Origin: a virus
Lineage: Duplodnaviria > Heunggongvirae > Uroviricota > Caudoviricetes
Reading direction: 5' to 3' (one strand)
DNA length: 5,455 nucleotides
IMG/VR virus record: IMGVR_UViG_3300010283_000096
Span: 1-5,455 of that record
In this document: positions 1 through 5,455 of the stretch, piece after piece
Numbering within the stretch: position 1 is the first letter of the stretch
Layout: every line of letters starts with the position of its first letter
The notes under the pieces: generated by a model
Databases searched by the model: none
What the model was told of the DNA's origin: nothing
Seen by the model: the letters and a program-made list of their open reading frames with translations, nothing else
Translations under genes and position numbers: made by a program

Positions 1-81
1 CAGGCGTGGTACATGGATATGATGTGCGAAGCGCGTGGCGCGGCGGATCTGTATACGCAATCGGCTTTGCAAAGGGGATGA
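1..81 (+). CDS. 3' end of an upstream gene (partial, N-terminus outside window); product not identifiable
   Basis: Frame 1 is open from base 1 to a TGA at 79-81 (translation ...QAWYMDMMCEARGAADLYTQSALQRG*). The other two + frames are not consistent with a gene ending here. The next gene starts 3 nt downstream in a coupled arrangement. No recognisable motif in the 26 visible residues. Confidence 0.4.
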   Translation, partial: QAWYMDMMCEARGAADLYTQSALQRG

Positions 82-84
82 GCA

Positions 85-426
85 ATGAGGGGGATTATTT
101 TTCTGTTAGCTGTCTTTTCTGCGTGCAGCGCGTGGGCGGATGGCTTCACGGTTAAATGCGGTGGCTACACTATGGTTGCAAACCAGGGCGAGTTATCGAC
201 AATCAACGGTGAAAGAGTTACCTCTCAAAAAATCACCGAACTGGGTACCAATGGTTTGAAAGTAGACATGGGGCTTATGCCAGCCAAAGACGGTAACAAC
301 TACGGCTTTGAATACATTCGTCGCCCTGGTACCGAAACGCGATTCCTGAATGTGCAACTGCTGCAGAACAGCATGGATGCGCCGAAAATCATCGGTTCCT
401 TTCCATGCAAAAAGATTGTTGATTAA
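85..426 (+). CDS. Small secreted protein or putative lipoprotein (113 aa), unknown function
   Basis: ATG at 85 is preceded by a Shine-Dalgarno-like AAGGGGA (72-78). The N-terminus MRGIIFLLAVFSACSAWADG is a typical signal peptide (positive residue, hydrophobic core). It has two possible processing sites: an AXA signal peptidase I site (AWA|DG) and a weak lipobox-like FSAC. The mature part is hydrophilic with no further hydrophobic helix. GC is similar to the tail genes (about 60% in a sampled block). Confidence 0.7.
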   Translation: MRGIIFLLAVFSACSAWADGFTVKCGGYTMVANQGELSTINGERVTSQKITELGTNGLKVDMGLMPAKDGNNYGFEYIRRPGTETRFLNVQLLQNSMDAPKIIGSFPCKKIVD

Positions 427-443
427 TCACTCGTAATTATAAT
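416..443 (+). promoter_or_regulatory. Putative sigma70-type promoter for the 480..719 gene (-35 TTGTTG 416-421, 16-nt spacer, -10 TATAAT 438-443)
   Basis: A perfect TATAAT hexamer at 438-443 with a TTGTTG -35-like hexamer 16 nt upstream, overlapping the stop codon of the preceding gene. The predicted transcription start near 450 leaves a ~30 nt leader containing AAGGA (464-468) before the ATG at 480. Sequence-only prediction. Confidence 0.35.
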
Positions 444-479
444 GTGATACTTCTACTTTCACGATAAGGAATTTGTCGC

Positions 480-719
480 ATGTTCGGATTTGATAAATTA
501 ATAACTCCAAAAATCATCAACGTTCTGTATGGCATCACAATGTTACTTCTGGTTGTTGCCGCCATTATAACGTTTGTTAATGGGAAGGCTGCTGGCGCTT
601 TAGTGCTTTTGTTATGTGCTGTATTTTGCCGAATATTCTTTGAGTGCATCATGGTTTCATTTAAAAACAATGAGTATCTTCGCCGAATAGCTGAAGCGTT
701 AGAAGCAAACAAGCAGTAA
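480..719 (+). CDS. Small two-helix inner-membrane protein (79 aa), DUF4282-like; moron-type accessory gene
   Basis: Two hydrophobic helices (INVLYGITMLLLVVAAIITFV and ALVLLLCAVFCRIFFECIMVSF) are followed by a charged C-terminal tail (KNNEYLRRIAEALEANKQ). The N-terminal FDKLITPKIINVLYGI matches my recollection of the DUF4282 small membrane protein family (from memory, not searched). GC is lower than neighbours (about 32% in a sampled block). The gene is flanked by a promoter-like signal and a strong terminator. Confidence 0.65.
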   Translation: MFGFDKLITPKIINVLYGITMLLLVVAAIITFVNGKAAGALVLLLCAVFCRIFFECIMVSFKNNEYLRRIAEALEANKQ

Positions 720-735
720 TGAAACTTCAATAATG

Positions 736-759
736 AACCCGCCACCCGGCGGGTTTTTT
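736..759 (+). terminator. Rho-independent terminator (stem CCCGCC/GGCGGG, loop ACCC, followed by TTTTTT)
   Basis: CCCGCC (738-743) pairs perfectly with GGCGGG (748-753) around a 4-nt loop, extended by two A-T pairs, and is followed immediately by a six-T run (754-759). It lies 17 nt after the stop codon of the 480..719 gene. Confidence 0.8.
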
Positions 760-778
760 GCTTTCTGGAGCCTACCAA

Positions 779-1531
779 ATGGCAGTATCTGACCAGACCC
801 GCAGCGGCGACCTTGCCGAAACATTCAAATCTGAACGGGAAACAACAAAGAATCAGATCCGTGTCGCCTTGCCTGGCATTATTCAGTCATTCGATCCTGA
901 TGCGGTGACGGCGGTTGTGCAGCCTGCTATCCGTTCGGTTGAAAAGGATAATGACGGCAACCGCATTACCAAAAATTACCCGTTGCTGGTGGATGTGCCA
1001 GTGGTATTCCCGCGCGGCGGAGGATGCACGCTAACGTTCCCGGTTAAAGCCGGTGATGAATGTTTGGTGATTTTTGCCGATCGTTGTATTGATTTCTGGT
1101 GGCAGAGCGGCGGGATACAGGAGCCGGTTGATGACAGAATGCATGATTTATCGGATGCGTTTTGTATTGTCGGTCCCCAGTCGCAGGCGAGGAAGATTAG
1201 CGGTATTAATACCAGTGCCACACAGTTGCGTAGTGACGACGGCAGCACCTATTTTGAGCTTAATCCTGATACCAGGAAAATTAAAATTGTCGCTCCGGGG
1301 GGGCTTGATGTGGTTGCCCCCCTGGCTGATTTTTCTGAGAAAGTAACCATTCATGGCCTGTTAACCTGGATGGGTGGCATGGTGGGGTCTGTTGTTTCTG
1401 GTGTGGCTTCAAAAATCACTGGTGCTGTTGAGTTCTTGGGGAGCGTGAAGGCTAACGGCAAGCCAATCGATGATACGCACACTCATGGTGGTGTTCAGCG
1501 CGGTGGAAGCAATACCGACGGAGTAAACTGA
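779..1531 (+). CDS. Baseplate central spike/hub protein, gpV-like (P2 gpV / phi92 gp138 class), about 250 aa
   Basis: The N-terminal half (RVALPGIIQSFDPD...VDVPVVFPRGGGCTLTFPVKAGDECLVIFADRCIDFWWQSG) has the character of the gpV/gp5 OB-fold domain. The C-terminus carries a Gly-rich stretch and a His-x-His apex motif (DDTHTHGGVQRGGSNTDG), comparable to the P2 gpV C-terminus as I recall it. The ATG at 779 with GGAG (765-768) about 10 nt upstream is preferred over the TTG at 758 given by the ORF track, which sits inside the terminator T-run. The stop overlaps the next start (TGATG). Confidence 0.8.
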   Translation: MAVSDQTRSGDLAETFKSERETTKNQIRVALPGIIQSFDPDAVTAVVQPAIRSVEKDNDGNRITKNYPLLVDVPVVFPRGGGCTLTFPVKAGDECLVIFADRCIDFWWQSGGIQEPVDDRMHDLSDAFCIVGPQSQARKISGINTSATQLRSDDGSTYFELNPDTRKIKIVAPGGLDVVAPLADFSEKVTIHGLLTWMGGMVGSVVSGVASKITGAVEFLGSVKANGKPIDDTHTHGGVQRGGSNTDGVN

Positions 1532-1884
1532 TGCGATACAGACGTGAAGACGCCGATGGCGATTACACCTTTGGCAGCGGTGATGACACCTGGCTGATTA
1601 ACTCACCGGAGGCCGTGGCACAGGCGGTAAAAACGCGATTCGAATTGTGGTATGGGCAATGGTTTCTCGACACCACCGAGGGGACTCCGTGGATCCAGTC
1701 CGTACTCGGTAAGCAGAAGCCGGAAACCTACAACCTGGCGATCCGTAAGCGCATCCTCGAAACGCGGGGCGTTAAATCAATCCTCTCTTTCAATACGACG
1801 GTGGATACCACGACCCGACGTGTCAGGTTTTCCGCTGAAATCGACACTCTTTATGGAATAACGACTGTTACATCGGAGGCGTAA
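1531..1884 (+). CDS. Small baseplate-associated protein (117 aa), positional equivalent of P2 gpW / Mu gp46 / gp25-like wedge subunit; family not confirmed
   Basis: Coding is well supported: GGAG lies 8 nt upstream, and both ends are coupled by overlapping stop/start codons (TGATG at 1529-1533, TAATG at 1882-1886). The size and position between a gpV-like and a Baseplate J gene are typical of gp25/W-like proteins. I do not recognise canonical GPW motifs in the sequence, so the functional call is positional. Confidence 0.6.
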   Translation: MRYRREDADGDYTFGSGDDTWLINSPEAVAQAVKTRFELWYGQWFLDTTEGTPWIQSVLGKQKPETYNLAIRKRILETRGVKSILSFNTTVDTTTRRVRFSAEIDTLYGITTVTSEA

Positions 1885-3083
1885 TGACTCTGAACCTTGA
1901 TTCTCTCGGTTTATCTGCAAAGGTAACCGCGGAGGGGATCAGTGCGCCTGATTATCAGACGATACTCAGCACCCTGATTAGCTATTTTCAGCAGATTTAT
2001 GGTAGTGATGCCTACCTCGAACCGGACAGTAAAGACGGTCAGATGGTGGCTCTGATGGCGCTGGCGATTCATGATGCCAATAATACGGCGATAACTGTCT
2101 ACAACTGTTTTTCACCGGCAACCGGCTATGGGGCTGCACTGACCAGTAACGTGAAAATAAATGGTATTTCACGTAAAGGCGCGACGAACTCTACGGTTGA
2201 TTTGCTTCTTACAGGAACTGCCGGAACAACCATCATTAATGGCAGCGTGAAAGACAGTAATAATGTGATATGGCGTTTGCCTGCTTCAGTGGTGGTCGGC
2301 GTGGATGGTACAGTGATGGTGACCGCAAAATGTTCCGTCAGTGGTGCAGTGGCGGCGCTGGCTGGAACTATCACTGAAATTAATACGCCAACCCGTGGCT
2401 GGGTTTCGGTAACCAATCCTGCTGCAGCTACTGTAGGCACTCCGGCAGAAACTGATGCGGAGTTACGTATCCGCCAGTCGCAAAGTGTTGCGTTGCCATC
2501 AATAACCCCATTTGAAGCACTGGATGGTGCTGTTTCTAATGTTACCGGGGTAACCCGCCACAAACTCTATGAAAACGATACTGGTTCGGAGGATGGTAAC
2601 GGGTTACCGCCACACTCTGTTGCTGTAATTGTGGATGGCGGTGATGTGACGGATATTGCTCAGGCTATCAGAGGGAATAAAGGCCAGGGGACAGCCACTC
2701 ACGGTACAACATCCGTTACGGTTCCGGATAAATACGGCAATCCCCATGTAATCAAATTCTCGCGTTCCAGTGATGTGCCTGTTTATGCCCGGATTAAATT
2801 AAAAGTTTTTACGGGTTATACCTCACAGATAGGGCAGCAGATCCAGCAGGCTATTTCCGACTATATCAATAGTCTGATGATTGGTGATTCGGTCCTTTTA
2901 AGTCGCATTTACTCACCGGCGAATCTTGGCGTGGTGAGTGGCGGAAATGCACGCTATTACGATATTCAGGAACTGACGATTGGTAAATCCCCGGGGGCTT
3001 TGTCGTCATCAAACATTGATATCAGATATAACGAATCTGCGTCCTGTGCCCCGGAAAATATCGTTATAACGGTGGAGTCATGA
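1884..3083 (+). CDS. Baseplate wedge protein, Baseplate J family (P2 gpJ / Mu gp47 / T4 gp6-like), 399 aa
   Basis: Size, position after the gpV-like and small baseplate genes, and overall sequence character match Baseplate J-family proteins. The start is coupled to the upstream gene (GGAGG 1876-1880, TAATG overlap) and the 3' end overlaps the next gene (ATGA at 3080-3083). E. coli e14 jayE is a remembered analogue. Confidence 0.8.
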   Translation: MTLNLDSLGLSAKVTAEGISAPDYQTILSTLISYFQQIYGSDAYLEPDSKDGQMVALMALAIHDANNTAITVYNCFSPATGYGAALTSNVKINGISRKGATNSTVDLLLTGTAGTTIINGSVKDSNNVIWRLPASVVVGVDGTVMVTAKCSVSGAVAALAGTITEINTPTRGWVSVTNPAAATVGTPAETDAELRIRQSQSVALPSITPFEALDGAVSNVTGVTRHKLYENDTGSEDGNGLPPHSVAVIVDGGDVTDIAQAIRGNKGQGTATHGTTSVTVPDKYGNPHVIKFSRSSDVPVYARIKLKVFTGYTSQIGQQIQQAISDYINSLMIGDSVLLSRIYSPANLGVVSGGNARYYDIQELTIGKSPGALSSSNIDIRYNESASCAPENIVITVES

Positions 3084-3760
3084 GCAAATACACCGAACTA
3101 ATCACGAACTATCACGCCACCAAACCTAAATTTCTTGCACATGCTGATCTGATGACCAGGCCGCTTATTGATGTTGCGGCTGCCACCAGAGGGCTGATTA
3201 CTGCATTTGATATTGACTCTGCGGTTGGTGTGCAACTTGACATTCTGGGATTGTGGATCGGACGTAGCCGTGTTGTCAGCCAGCCTATCTCAGGTGTCTA
3301 TTTCAGCTGGGATACCGACGGGCTTGGATATGATCAAGGTGTATGGCAGGGGCCATACGATCCTGATTCCGGATACATGTACCTCAGCGATGAAACTTAT
3401 CGTGTCATCCTTAAAGCGAAGATTGCGATTAATAACTGGGACGGACGGAATGATTCGCTTCCAGCAATTCTTGACGCTGCAACAGCAGGATCAGGGCTGC
3501 GAATGCAGATAGTCGATAACCAGGACATGACGATATCGGTCTGGGTCTTTCCTGATACTGATATTTCAGATGTATCGCGTGAGTTAATTGCGGCAATTAA
3601 ACAGGGGTATCTAACAGTAAAAGCCGCCGGGGTATGGGCGGGGGGCATTGAAACACCTTCGGTGGAAACTCCATCGGAAGGCTCTAAATTTTTTGGTTTT
3701 GATATGGATAACGAATTCATCAGTTGTTTTGATGTAGGGGCATGGGGAGTATTACTCTGA
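3080..3760 (+). CDS. Baseplate wedge / tail-fiber attachment protein, gpI-like (P2 gpI / Mu gp48 position; possibly DUF2313/YmfQ-like), 226 aa
   Basis: The ORF overlaps the Baseplate J gene by 4 nt (ATGA) and sits immediately upstream of the tail fiber gene. This is the conserved position of gpI-type proteins that follow Baseplate J in P2/Mu-type baseplates. Family membership is inferred from synteny and size, not from a recognised motif. Confidence 0.65.
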
Positions 3761-4464
3761 TGGCGAAAAATGACTTTAAAGCGTTTGCAACTGATCGAAA
3801 TGCCAATGTTATGTCGCAGGAGGAATGGGAAGCGTTGCCTGCGCTTATATCCGGATTTACAGCAGGGAAAGCATCCAGTGCGCAAGTCAATAAGGTTATT
3901 CGGCAGGCCAGCTTTATTGCTGCAGCTCTGGCCCAGTTTGTAAGTGATAAAACGCAACGGGATGTGCTTGATAATGGTGATCTGCCCGGTTTTGTTGAAT
4001 TGCTGGGATCGGGGTTTGCTGTTGAATACCTGAGCCGCAAGAATCCGTTTGGCGATATCAAATCGGATGGCACGGTGAAAACGGCTCTCGAAAACCTTGG
4101 TTTGGGAGAAGCGGCAAAACGGAATGTGGGGACAGGGGAAAATCAGATCCCCGATATGAGTTCTTTCGCTTCGTTGAGCGGTGAATCGGGTTACCAGCGT
4201 CTCCCAAGTGGGAGGCTTATTGTCTGGGGACGTGCGATGGTTTCCTCATCTTCAAATACGATTACGCTTATTGCTTCTTTTGACAATACAAATTATCGCG
4301 TTATTGTATCCGATACCGGATCTGGCTGTATTCCGTACGGTGCATCACCGTTAAGTGGTTCGACATTCAAACTGACCAGAGCTGGTCGTTCCTATAATAG
4401 CGATGGAACGTTACAAACAATCTCTGGTCCATCTGCTGTTAATTACATCGCAATAGGTAATTAA
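3760..4464 (+). CDS. Short tail fiber / receptor-binding protein (about 235 aa)
   Basis: It is immediately followed by a Tfa-type chaperone gene and preceded by baseplate wedge genes. The C-terminal half is Ser/Gly/Thr/Asn-rich ([42 protein letters not shown]...), typical of fiber distal domains. The ATG at 3760 (GGGGAG at 3744-3749, 10 nt upstream; overlaps the upstream stop as TGATG) is preferred over the in-frame ATG at 3742, which lies inside the previous gene. Confidence 0.75.
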
Positions 4465-4465
4465 T

Positions 4466-4867
4466 ATGTTTTATTCTAAGAGTGCCAACGGTTTTTTCGA
4501 TTCTTTATCTGCTCTTCCCGATGATTCATTAGAAATATCCGATGAGAAATATGCTGAAATGATCGAGGGTATCGAGGCAGGAAAAGTTTTATCTTCAGAC
4601 CATGAAGGCTATCCAGTTTTATCAGATCTTAAGTTGACAAAGGAACAGCAAATCAGTGAGGTAATGATTGTTAAAAATGGCAAAATTGCAGATGCTATGT
4701 CAGAAATTAGCGTATGGCAAACAGAGTTACAATTGGGGATCATAAGCGATAACGACAAAGTCAGTCTGATAAACTGGCTTTTGTACATTAAAGAACTGCA
4801 AGCCGTTGACACTTCAACGTCTCCTGACGTTATATGGCCTATGCCTCCGATAGTTCAGGACAGATGA
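4466..4867 (+). CDS. Tail fiber assembly chaperone, Tfa family (lambda Tfa / P2 gpG / Mu gpU class), 133 aa
   Basis: The C-terminal motif SLINWLLYIKELQAVDTSTSPDVIWPMPP closely resembles the conserved Tfa C-terminus (lambda Tfa ends ...[29 protein letters not shown] as I recall it). The gene starts 1 nt after the fiber stop codon. Its GC (about 37% in a sampled block) is lower than the baseplate genes, consistent with a swappable host-range cassette. Confidence 0.85.
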   Translation: MFYSKSANGFFDSLSALPDDSLEISDEKYAEMIEGIEAGKVLSSDHEGYPVLSDLKLTKEQQISEVMIVKNGKIADAMSEISVWQTELQLGIISDNDKVSLINWLLYIKELQAVDTSTSPDVIWPMPPIVQDR

Positions 4868-4873
4868 TATCCG

Positions 4874-4905
4874 ATGCACTGGAACAATAGATACATCCAG
4901 TGCAT
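4874..4905. repeat. Perfect 10-bp inverted repeat (ATGCACTGGA / TCCAGTGCAT) with a 12-nt spacer, between convergent genes; possible terminator hairpin or protein-binding palindrome
   Basis: Arm 1 (4874-4883, ATGCACTGGA) and arm 2 (4896-4905, TCCAGTGCAT) are exact reverse complements. The repeat lies 7 nt after the Tfa stop and about 45 nt from the stop of the convergent minus-strand gene. There is no clean T-run on either side, so it is not a canonical intrinsic terminator. Confidence 0.5.
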
Positions 4906-4948
4906 ATAATATTAACTGTTCAGTAATTAATACAGATAATCTTTAACT

Positions 4949-5455
4949 TTAAATATGTGCGTACATTTTTATTTTTTTGTAAATTGGTATGGTGATATAA
5001 TATGAAGCCATAAAGCAAATCGCGGTAAGCATTATTACCTGGATTCCATTCGCTGGCGCTAGTTTTATACCAAACAAACTACCTGCTTCGGTAATTAATA
5101 ACTTTATTGTTTGTTCTGTGCCACATAGAACTAGCGTATTTCTACCTAATTCATAAAAAGGTTTAAATACAAGTAATCGAGACACAAAAATAGACGAGAT
5201 AATTAATGAGAATGTTATAGTAATATTAATCACAGATAATATATATTTGTTGCTTGAAATAGCATAAATATCCTTAACCCCAAACATATATAGATATGAT
5301 GAAACCAAAACACTAATTGTGATTGCTAGTAAAAATCCAACACCATTCATTATAAATGACTTGGAACTTTGCAGGATATAACTAGATAAAAATTTTCCTA
5401 ATGAATAATACAGGAGATATACAAGGGCGCTGTCAACGTTAAAAAAATAAGCAGG
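4949..5455 (-). CDS. AT-rich gene for a polytopic integral membrane protein (C-terminal 169 codons visible; N-terminus beyond the window edge), unknown function
   Basis: The minus-strand ORF stops at 4949-4951. Its reading frame remains open upstream of the ATG at 5350 through to the window end at 5455 (no stop codon when I translate 5351-5455 in frame), so the gene most likely starts outside the window. The protein is very hydrophobic with at least three predicted helices (GFLLAITISVLVSSYLYMF, ILSVINITITFSLIISSIFV, IQVIMLTAICFMASYYITIPIY) and is rich in I/L/F/Y/K/N. Local GC is about 25%, against about 55% in the tail genes. Confidence 0.65.
   Translation of the reverse strand, partial: PAYFFNVDSALVYLLYYSLGKFLSSYILQSSKSFIMNGVGFLLAITISVLVSSYLYMFGVKDIYAISSNKYILSVINITITFSLIISSIFVSRLLVFKPFYELGRNTLVLCGTEQTIKLLITEAGSLFGIKLAPANGIQVIMLTAICFMASYYITIPIYKKIKMYAHI

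Follow-up and report, generated by a model that had tools for sequence, protein, structure and literature searches.

The DNA analysed here (5,455 nucleotides (nt), positions 1 to 5,455 of the IMG/VR virus record IMGVR_UViG_3300010283_000096, Caudoviricetes; hereafter the window) is the tail-tip and baseplate region of a temperate myovirus prophage of the SEN34/Brunovirus type, which is common in Escherichia coli and is found in several hundred E. coli genomes, including those of O55:H7, O111 and O145:H28 strains. Between the baseplate hub gene and the spike gene lies a short cassette with a gene for a 79-amino-acid (aa) protein of the family DUF4282 (Pfam PF14110), which an original prediction, made from the sequence alone, had described as a self-contained moron with its own promoter and terminator. 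The segment 414-734 is very probably an accessory, horizontally exchanged unit of the moron type. The features of the locus are listed below, where SD denotes a Shine-Dalgarno sequence, ORF an open reading frame and UTR an untranslated region.

1-81, + strand: 3' end of the baseplate hub gene (E217_GP41 / gp27-like); left backbone flank, where the tblastn alignment with the SEN34 hub ends at 78
85-426, + strand: p113, a 113-aa signal-peptide protein of PHROG 3443 (function unknown); semi-conserved, abutting the hub stop codon
414-734, + strand: cargo-specific segment (the moron proper) with -35, -10, SD, DUF4282 ORF and 15 nt of 3' UTR; GC 35.5% (alignment A1)
416-443, + strand: sigma-70 promoter-like site, TTGTTG (416-421), 16 nt and a perfect TATAAT (438-443), from sequence reading and scoring
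466-470, + strand: SD AAGGA, 9 nt ahead of the ATG, read directly
480-719, + strand: DUF4282 gene, 79 aa, 8.8 kDa (Pfam, PHROG 12129, homologs, substitution rates, structure model and hydropathy)
735-765, + strand: intrinsic terminator, stem GAACCCGCC / GGCGGGTTT, loop ACCC and T-run; right border of the slot
767-1531, + strand: spike SD (GGAG, 767-770) and spike gene (ATG at 779); right backbone flank

The DUF4282 gene and its product

The product of 480-719 matched the PF14110 profile with an E-value of 1.2e-10 and 42.2 bits (residues 2-71 on profile positions 2-85 of 86), the curated gathering cut-off of the family being 27 bits; the DUF4282-like identity that had been proposed is thereby borne out, as is the 79-aa ORF with an SD of its own. 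Homologs of conserved length (n=87) were found across the Enterobacterales, and PF14110 was carried by all 86 of those with precomputed Pfam hits. The ratio of non-synonymous to synonymous substitution rates (dN/dS) of the ORF was at most 0.23 wherever dS was computable, synonymous sites being saturated otherwise. Because of the conserved-length homologs and the low dN/dS, 480-719 is a real gene under purifying selection. A longer antisense ORF (437-778) was considered as the true gene and rejected as spurious, as the Pfam match, the homolog conservation and the dN/dS all fall on the + strand ORF. The base composition deviates as had been stated: GC content is 37.5% in the DUF4282 ORF and 35.5% in 414-734 as a whole, versus 47.4% in the upstream gene and 51.3% in the spike gene.

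The product is a predicted two-helix hairpin of the inner membrane. An AlphaFold2 (AF2) model with a mean predicted local distance difference test score (pLDDT) of 85.7 shows a helical hairpin made of helix 10-33, a four-residue turn and helix 37-78, and the hydropathy profile favours two spans of the membrane with an amphipathic tail of 19 residues behind them. An alignment of the DUF4282 homologs (A2) has 17 invariant columns. Conserved elements are LITPKI just ahead of helix 1, R51/F54/E55 within helix 2 (motif R-FFE), and the invariant F-K-N-N-E-Y-L-R-R-I just after helix 2; the most conserved parts of the alignment are thus short motifs on the soluble face, the membrane helices being less conserved, which points to a specific partner rather than to a generic membrane effect. 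The LITPKI and FKNNEYLRRI motifs would be on the same side of the membrane, probably the cytoplasmic one. The Enterobacterales subfamily with the latter motif (about 78-82 aa) is largely phage-borne.

The protein is assigned to PHROG 12129, an entry labelled 'unknown function', and literature searches for DUF4282, PF14110 and WP_000466689 found no papers in the library that was covered, in agreement with the original prediction that the function of the family is not known to have been described. No catalogued defence protein was matched in PADLOC-DB v2 at E-values up to 0.01, and there was no match in NCBIfam. Pfam searches at E-values up to 0.1 gave no holin family; besides DUF4282, the one other similarity was a weak, sub-threshold one to YbhQ, an inner-membrane protein of E. 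coli (E 8e-4). When PDB sequences were searched with a profile, nothing came up below an E-value of 0.1, and a fold search with the AF2 model against PDB and BFVD returned generic helical hairpins only, none at an E-value of 0.001 or better. Nothing relevant emerged when the window was scanned against Rfam, which rules out a known RNA element as an explanation of the locus.

The variable slot between hub and spike

Homology of the window with Salmonella phage SEN34, Yersinia phage YP3 and Escherichia phage vB_EcoM-611R5 ends in the last codons of p113, after the conserved FPCKK, and returns exactly at the terminator (the megablast alignment with 611R5 returns at 736). What the three phages have between these same break points are ORFs of 140, 266 and 170 aa, respectively, that are unrelated; the genes homologous to the left flank are annotated as 'baseplate hub' in SEN34 and YP3. 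On the basis of the break points, the promoter-like hexamers, the SD and the ORF (about 414-734) are assigned to the cargo, whereas the terminator, the spike SD and the spike gene belong to the backbone. The last approximately four codons of p113 are cargo-specific, and the break lies inside them.

The junction was surveyed in 160 loci with a spike homolog, in 150 of which both hub and spike could be placed. The distance between the two genes ranges from 9 to more than 2800 bp, and the slot shows 58 architectures and is empty in 18 of the 150 loci; in eight related loci the gap measures 9-45 bp, as compared with 701 bp in the window. The combination of p113 and DUF4282 was found in 11 of the 150. 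Among 5426 complete E. coli genomes, the cassette is present in 84, always with at least 99% identity, while the spike backbone is present in 213 at a coverage of at least 80% and in 315 at any coverage (78-98% identity). Identity to the window in ten viral contigs amounts to 99.7-100% for the cassette, as against only 95-98% for the adjoining spike gene; the cassette is more conserved than its flanks. The expected presence or absence at the same junction in relatives was thus found, the alternative to the cassette being unrelated cargo or nothing (84 versus 213-315 E. coli genomes). A fixed structural or lysis role in the SEN34-like lineage was rejected on these presence/absence data and on the existence of a separate complete lysis cassette.

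Other cargo in the slot includes PD-Lambda-1 (PADLOC E 5e-83), a YafO toxin, a Fic/Doc protein, a DUF2335 membrane protein and a weakly PycTM-like protein. Up to 78 clusters of cargo ORFs were distinguished (loci L012-L171; e.g., L109 2218-3447, L023 3042-3458 and L142 3024-3434). A two-gene pair (257-266 aa and 131-165 aa), neither member of which has a Pfam or PADLOC match, is the most frequent cargo and occupies the slot in 37-38 loci. In YP3 (L003) the 266-aa cargo ORF lies between perfect direct repeats of 124 nt (5476-5599 and 6400-6523), the second of which runs into the spike start codon; judging from the sequence, the repeats look like a duplication that arose from cargo insertion. 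The YP3 slot is among the only six occupied slots without a terminator.

The terminator consists of a 9-bp stem (735-756, six GC pairs) and the sequence TTTGCTTTCT behind it. Among the terminators returned by the scan it ranked first not only for the window but also for the approximately 20 kb late region of a near-identical prophage, and its core hairpin has a folding energy of about -14.6 kcal/mol (z -2.7 versus shuffled sequences); the strong intrinsic terminator of the original prediction is therefore confirmed. Of the 132 occupied slots, 126 have, ahead of the spike gene and independently of the cargo, a hairpin of the type AACCCGCC-loop-GGCGGGTT with T-run and GGAG. The same hairpin is found in eight of ten gene-less hub-spike gaps of 70-124 nt and is missing only where hub and spike nearly touch. 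Since it flanks whatever cargo is present and also gene-less gaps, the terminator is the conserved right border of the slot, and the idea that it is private to the DUF4282 cassette was rejected. Compensatory changes affect four of seven stem pairs (alignment A3, 79 distinct sequences); as most of the stem does not vary, the covariation term is weak (-0.14). Hairpin, T-run and GGAG (735-778 in the window; about 65 nt upstream of the spike start in the 79 distinct loci of A3) are conserved across spikes that are only 46-60% identical. The hairpin may serve as a recombination boundary for cargo exchange.

Judged by the published moron criteria (Juhala et al. 2000; Cumby et al. 2012, PMC3594210), the unit is extra DNA between genes that are adjacent in relatives, deviates in base composition and is followed by a factor-independent terminator, which at the hub-spike junction is, however, common to all cargo types. 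The moron architecture is upheld in so far as the unit is accessory, low in GC, followed by a terminator and situated in a variable slot, but its promoter is uncertain and its terminator is shared. The location needs correction: the cassette had been placed just before the baseplate operon, and it lies within that block, with hub and p113 on one side and the spike on the other.

The slot fits the definition of a moron site and resembles a hotspot of defence or accessory genes. Such hotspots have been described in temperate phages of the P2/P4 type (Rousset et al. 2022, as cited in PMC10884400). The hub-spike slot shares with them, and with lambdoid moron sites, a fixed position between core genes and many alternative cargo genes, here including the validated PD-Lambda-1 and toxins; it differs in lying at the hub-spike junction of SEN34-like myoviruses and in having a conserved terminator as its right edge. 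A search of the literature, which was not exhaustive, found no description of a hotspot at this junction. With PD-Lambda-1, YafO, Fic/Doc and dozens of uncharacterised cargo genes, the junction should be useful for mining new functions in phage defence or lysogenic conversion.

DUF4282 homologs in other contexts

Prophages of Erwinia, Pectobacterium and Hafnia also carry a DUF4282 gene at the hub-spike position, with products only 65-67% identical to that of the window; the Erwinia spike is 68% identical to the window spike. Among 50 divergent homologs from IMG/VR, 40 lie 0-60 nt past a tape measure gene (TMP_3 or SLT-containing). The same neighbourhood was seen in Klebsiella siphovirus prophages, in a Salmonella tail cluster like that of E217 and in Edwardsiella phage GF-2, and the gene that follows a tape-measure-linked DUF4282 gene is usually a Dit-like baseplate gene. 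The remaining phage contexts are mostly within the segment from tape measure to spike. Linkage to tape measure, hub and spike genes recurs in at least four types of tail module. In a lambdoid prophage of Pantoea, the homolog is found just downstream of holin, endolysin and Rz genes. Chromosomal homologs without phage genes nearby also exist, with LysR regulators, an acetyltransferase gene and iraP as neighbours, so the protein can work without a phage.

The family is not equally mobile everywhere. DUF4282 is absent from most close relatives of the window phage in the SEN34-like lineage; in the TMP_3/Dit-like myovirus lineage it is close to fixed, being present in 15 of 17 relatives of one Dit-like gene. 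The gene is thus not universally fixed in related phages, although nearly so in that second lineage, and the label 'free-floating moron' describes the family only in part. In TMP_3/Dit-like loci (L236 and L254, with DUF4282 at about 5001-5240) and in GF-2 (L181, 6001-6243) the start codon sometimes begins at the first base after the tape measure stop. Some DUF4282 versions of this lineage have N- or C-terminal extensions and reach up to 137 aa.

DUF4282 homologs in other contexts have a strong terminator of their own, 5-25 nt past the stop codon, in the Klebsiella siphovirus prophage, the Pantoea lambdoid prophage, Edwardsiella phage GF-2 and the TMP_3/Dit-like myoviruses. A terminator was found within 110 nt of the gene in 50 of 50 divergent IMG/VR loci, versus 30 of 305 control ORFs (other long same-strand ORFs in the same loci). 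On account of this difference (all homologs versus 10% of the controls), the unit of ORF and terminator is regarded as a trait of the family.

Upstream regions were compared by a position-weight promoter score that was built from hexamer frequencies of the literature. The best upstream scores have a family-wide median of 7.2 versus 4.3 for the control ORFs (42 distinct upstream regions; Mann-Whitney p about 1e-12, which overstates the case because the upstream sequences are mutually related and partly intergenic). Sites comparable to or better than that of the window occur in the Pantoea (TTGAAA-17-TAAGAT) and Klebsiella contexts, while the Erwinia context has no comparable promoter-like site.

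Transcription, possible function and neighbouring genes

The late genes of a near-identical prophage in E. coli MLI108K3 form a single co-oriented block (holin, terminase, head, tail, baseplate, fibre) that is headed by a gene of the Q antiterminator family and a tR'-like terminator. That strong terminator (L172 2874-2895) lies between the Q family gene and the holin gene, placed like lambda tR'. A complete lysis cassette, made up of a lambda-family holin, a GH104 endolysin and an Rz-like gene, is located 17 kb upstream of the DUF4282 gene. From the Q gene and the operon layout, and by analogy with lambda and HK97, Q-modified polymerase probably reads through 735-765 during lytic growth, in which case the spike gene would not be insulated at that stage. 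The hairpin would halt ordinary transcripts only, i.e., those from a moron promoter in the lysogen. The original prediction that the terminator insulates the spike gene thus holds for ordinary transcripts, as far as can be inferred; it does not extend to the lytic cycle if Q acts as proposed, and the terminator is a common slot border.

The explanation that we favour, with restrained confidence, combines a moron, expression in the lysogen, read-through under Q and superinfection exclusion. In the lysogen, the DUF4282 gene would be transcribed from its own sigma-70 promoter of weak to moderate strength, and the transcript would end at the 735-765 hairpin, so that the silent baseplate genes stay off; in lytic growth, Q-modified RNA polymerase would pass the same hairpin. 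The protein would insert into the inner membrane, its LITPKI and FKNNEYLRRI motifs probably facing the cytoplasm, and, as hypothesised from gene context, might block the entry of a superinfecting phage genome by interfering with the tape-measure/tail-tip channel. Exclusion is suggested as the best explanation of function because the product is a small inner-membrane protein whose gene is insulated by a terminator, dispensable in the SEN34-like lineage and repeatedly linked to DNA-injection genes; taken by itself, this assignment of function is tentative and rather doubtful.

HK97 gp15 is reportedly the first described moron. It is encoded beside the tape measure gene and confers superinfection exclusion with a specificity that depends on the tail region (PMC3594210). 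The DUF4282 cassette resembles it in being a one-gene unit in the tail operon of a Q-type temperate coliphage, in encoding a small inner-membrane protein near injection-machinery genes, in having a GC-rich hairpin with a T-run past the ORF and the next structural gene 12-20 nt further on (the HK97 annotation gives gp15 as 'moron product', then a terminator, and the tape measure gene 12 nt later), and in being missing from close relatives, as is gp15 (PMC3594210). There are also clear differences: gp15 is a 62-aa, single-helix, YebO-like protein (PF13974), a family that the DUF4282 protein does not match; gp15 lies ahead of the tape measure gene, whereas DUF4282 lies between hub and spike here and right after the tape measure gene elsewhere; and the function of gp15 was shown by experiment, while that of DUF4282 is a hypothesis drawn from the genes. 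T4 Imm, a membrane protein of 9.3 kDa, binds the tape measure protein and thereby blocks translocation of the genome, and a similar proposal has been made for gp15 (bioRxiv 10.64898/2026.03.06.709160). The DUF4282 product matches Imm in size (about 9 kDa) and in its predicted location at the inner membrane, both being phage-encoded; however, Imm is the product of an early gene of a virulent phage, in contrast to a prophage moron, and Pfam searches at the E-value limit given above linked the DUF4282 protein to nothing beyond its own family and YbhQ. By sequence the protein belongs to PF14110 and PHROG 12129, a family without an assigned function, and its resemblance to gp15 and Imm is one of design only.

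Several observations weigh against the proposed scheme. A consensus promoter scan of the window did not list the 416-443 site, because TTGTTG matches the -35 consensus at only three of six positions (TTG), the -10 being perfect. By position-weight score the site is in the top 2.1% of the 100-nt windows of the stretch, and this score is equalled by 5.2% of shuffles of the same AT-rich stretch. The promoter-like hexamers of the original prediction are thus present in the cargo DNA, where they make up a plausible candidate promoter that is statistically modest, only modestly above chance. Scores are weak in phages whose DUF4282 gene abuts the tape measure stop codon, and in several lineages the gene starts 0-19 nt past that stop, which fits a role in the lytic cycle as well as in the lysogen. 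No terminator was found between the upstream late genes (hub, p113) and the DUF4282 gene, so late lytic expression is expected too. To these are added the near-fixation in the TMP_3/Dit-like lineage, the fold searches, which were uninformative on function, and the comparison of gp15 with the DUF4282 protein, which gave no BLASTP alignment and an hhalign probability of 1.6%.

In the main rival explanation, DUF4282 is an accessory gene of the late operon only: the hexamers would be chance matches in AT-rich foreign DNA, the gene would be read from the Q-dependent late transcript, the protein would act in lytic growth, e.g., in the exclusion of late secondary infections or in shielding the membrane from tape measure or spike proteins of the same phage before these are assembled, and the hairpin would attenuate transcription or stabilise the 3' end of the RNA. 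The modest promoter score, the orientation shared with the late genes and uninterrupted by a terminator after hub and p113, the close spacing behind the tape measure stop in GF-2 and many IMG/VR loci with weak promoter scores, and the near-fixation just mentioned are all consistent with it, and HK97 has an annotated terminator past the major tail gene too, so that tail-operon terminators are not exclusive to morons. A strong terminator behind every one of the 50 divergent homologs is nevertheless hard to square with a gene whose read-through is always wanted, and stand-alone chromosomal copies outside prophages, the dispensability of the gene in the SEN34-like lineage, where most close relatives lack it, and the family-wide enrichment of upstream promoter-like scores likewise argue against a purely late role; we regard this explanation as rather unlikely.

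The small two-helix membrane protein could also be imagined as a regulator of lysis (holin, antiholin or pinholin-like), or as a small membrane toxin or abortive-infection effector. The Pantoea homolog just downstream of lysis genes, tape-measure-linked loci with lysis genes a few genes on, and the one weakly PycTM-like slot cargo lend themselves to such a role, which is nonetheless improbable given that the prophage already has a complete lysis cassette, that neither a holin family in Pfam nor any PADLOC entry was matched at the limits used, that the cassette contains no partner gene, and that conservation is strongest in the soluble-face motifs and not in the membrane helices. DUF4282 might also be a lysogenic-conversion factor unrelated to defence, of the kind represented by lambda Bor and Lom, that would affect the membrane physiology, stress tolerance or virulence of the host. 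The roles of moron products towards the host are varied (PMC3594210), and the non-phage homologs beside LysR regulators, an acetyltransferase gene and iraP, together with the sub-threshold YbhQ similarity, are compatible with this; the strong linkage to genes for tape measure, hub and spike, which recurs in four or more types of tail module, would, however, be unexpected for a general physiology factor, and we give the idea little credence.

The architecture as such is unsurprising, being that of a textbook moron, and the value of the cassette is as a lead on a family without an assigned function. The hypothesis offered for DUF4282 is that of a prophage-expressed exclusion of phage DNA entry whose specificity is set by the linked tape measure and tail-tip genes. 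It is possible, though speculative, that the enterobacterial DUF4282 proteins are a widespread and so far unrecognised family of tape-measure-directed exclusion proteins, functional analogues of gp15 and Imm that are unrelated to them in sequence; linkage to the injection genes that they target would then have been kept, and insulation by a terminator might allow expression in the lysogen without that of the tail genes. If this is true, the hub-spike junction of SEN34-like prophages would be a hotspot of defence genes bounded by a conserved terminator.

The right flank of the slot continues with the spike gene, in whose product Pfam recognises a spike-protein domain (PF18352) at the N-terminus as well as a GpV Apex motif; the gene is followed in order by a sheath-initiator-like gene, Baseplate_J, a DUF2612/wedge gene, a tail fibre gene and a tail-fibre assembly gene. 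On the left flank, p113 is found in 108 of the 150 hub-spike loci with 24-100% identity. Two cysteines are conserved in it, its signal peptide is of the cleavable type (..CSAWA|DG), and it has no match in Pfam, NCBIfam or PADLOC; p113 is thus a probably periplasmic, non-virion protein whose gene is semi-fixed within the baseplate gene block. E. coli relatives part from the window sequence after about 4111-4161. The end of the window (4868-5455) is very AT-rich (GC 30%) and contains, past the tail-fibre assembly gene, a 133-aa ORF on the - strand (4949-5350) with a hydrophobic, multi-span product; no match was found in Pfam, PHROG, PADLOC or NCBIfam, and the ORF is probably another cargo gene, situated at the prophage end.

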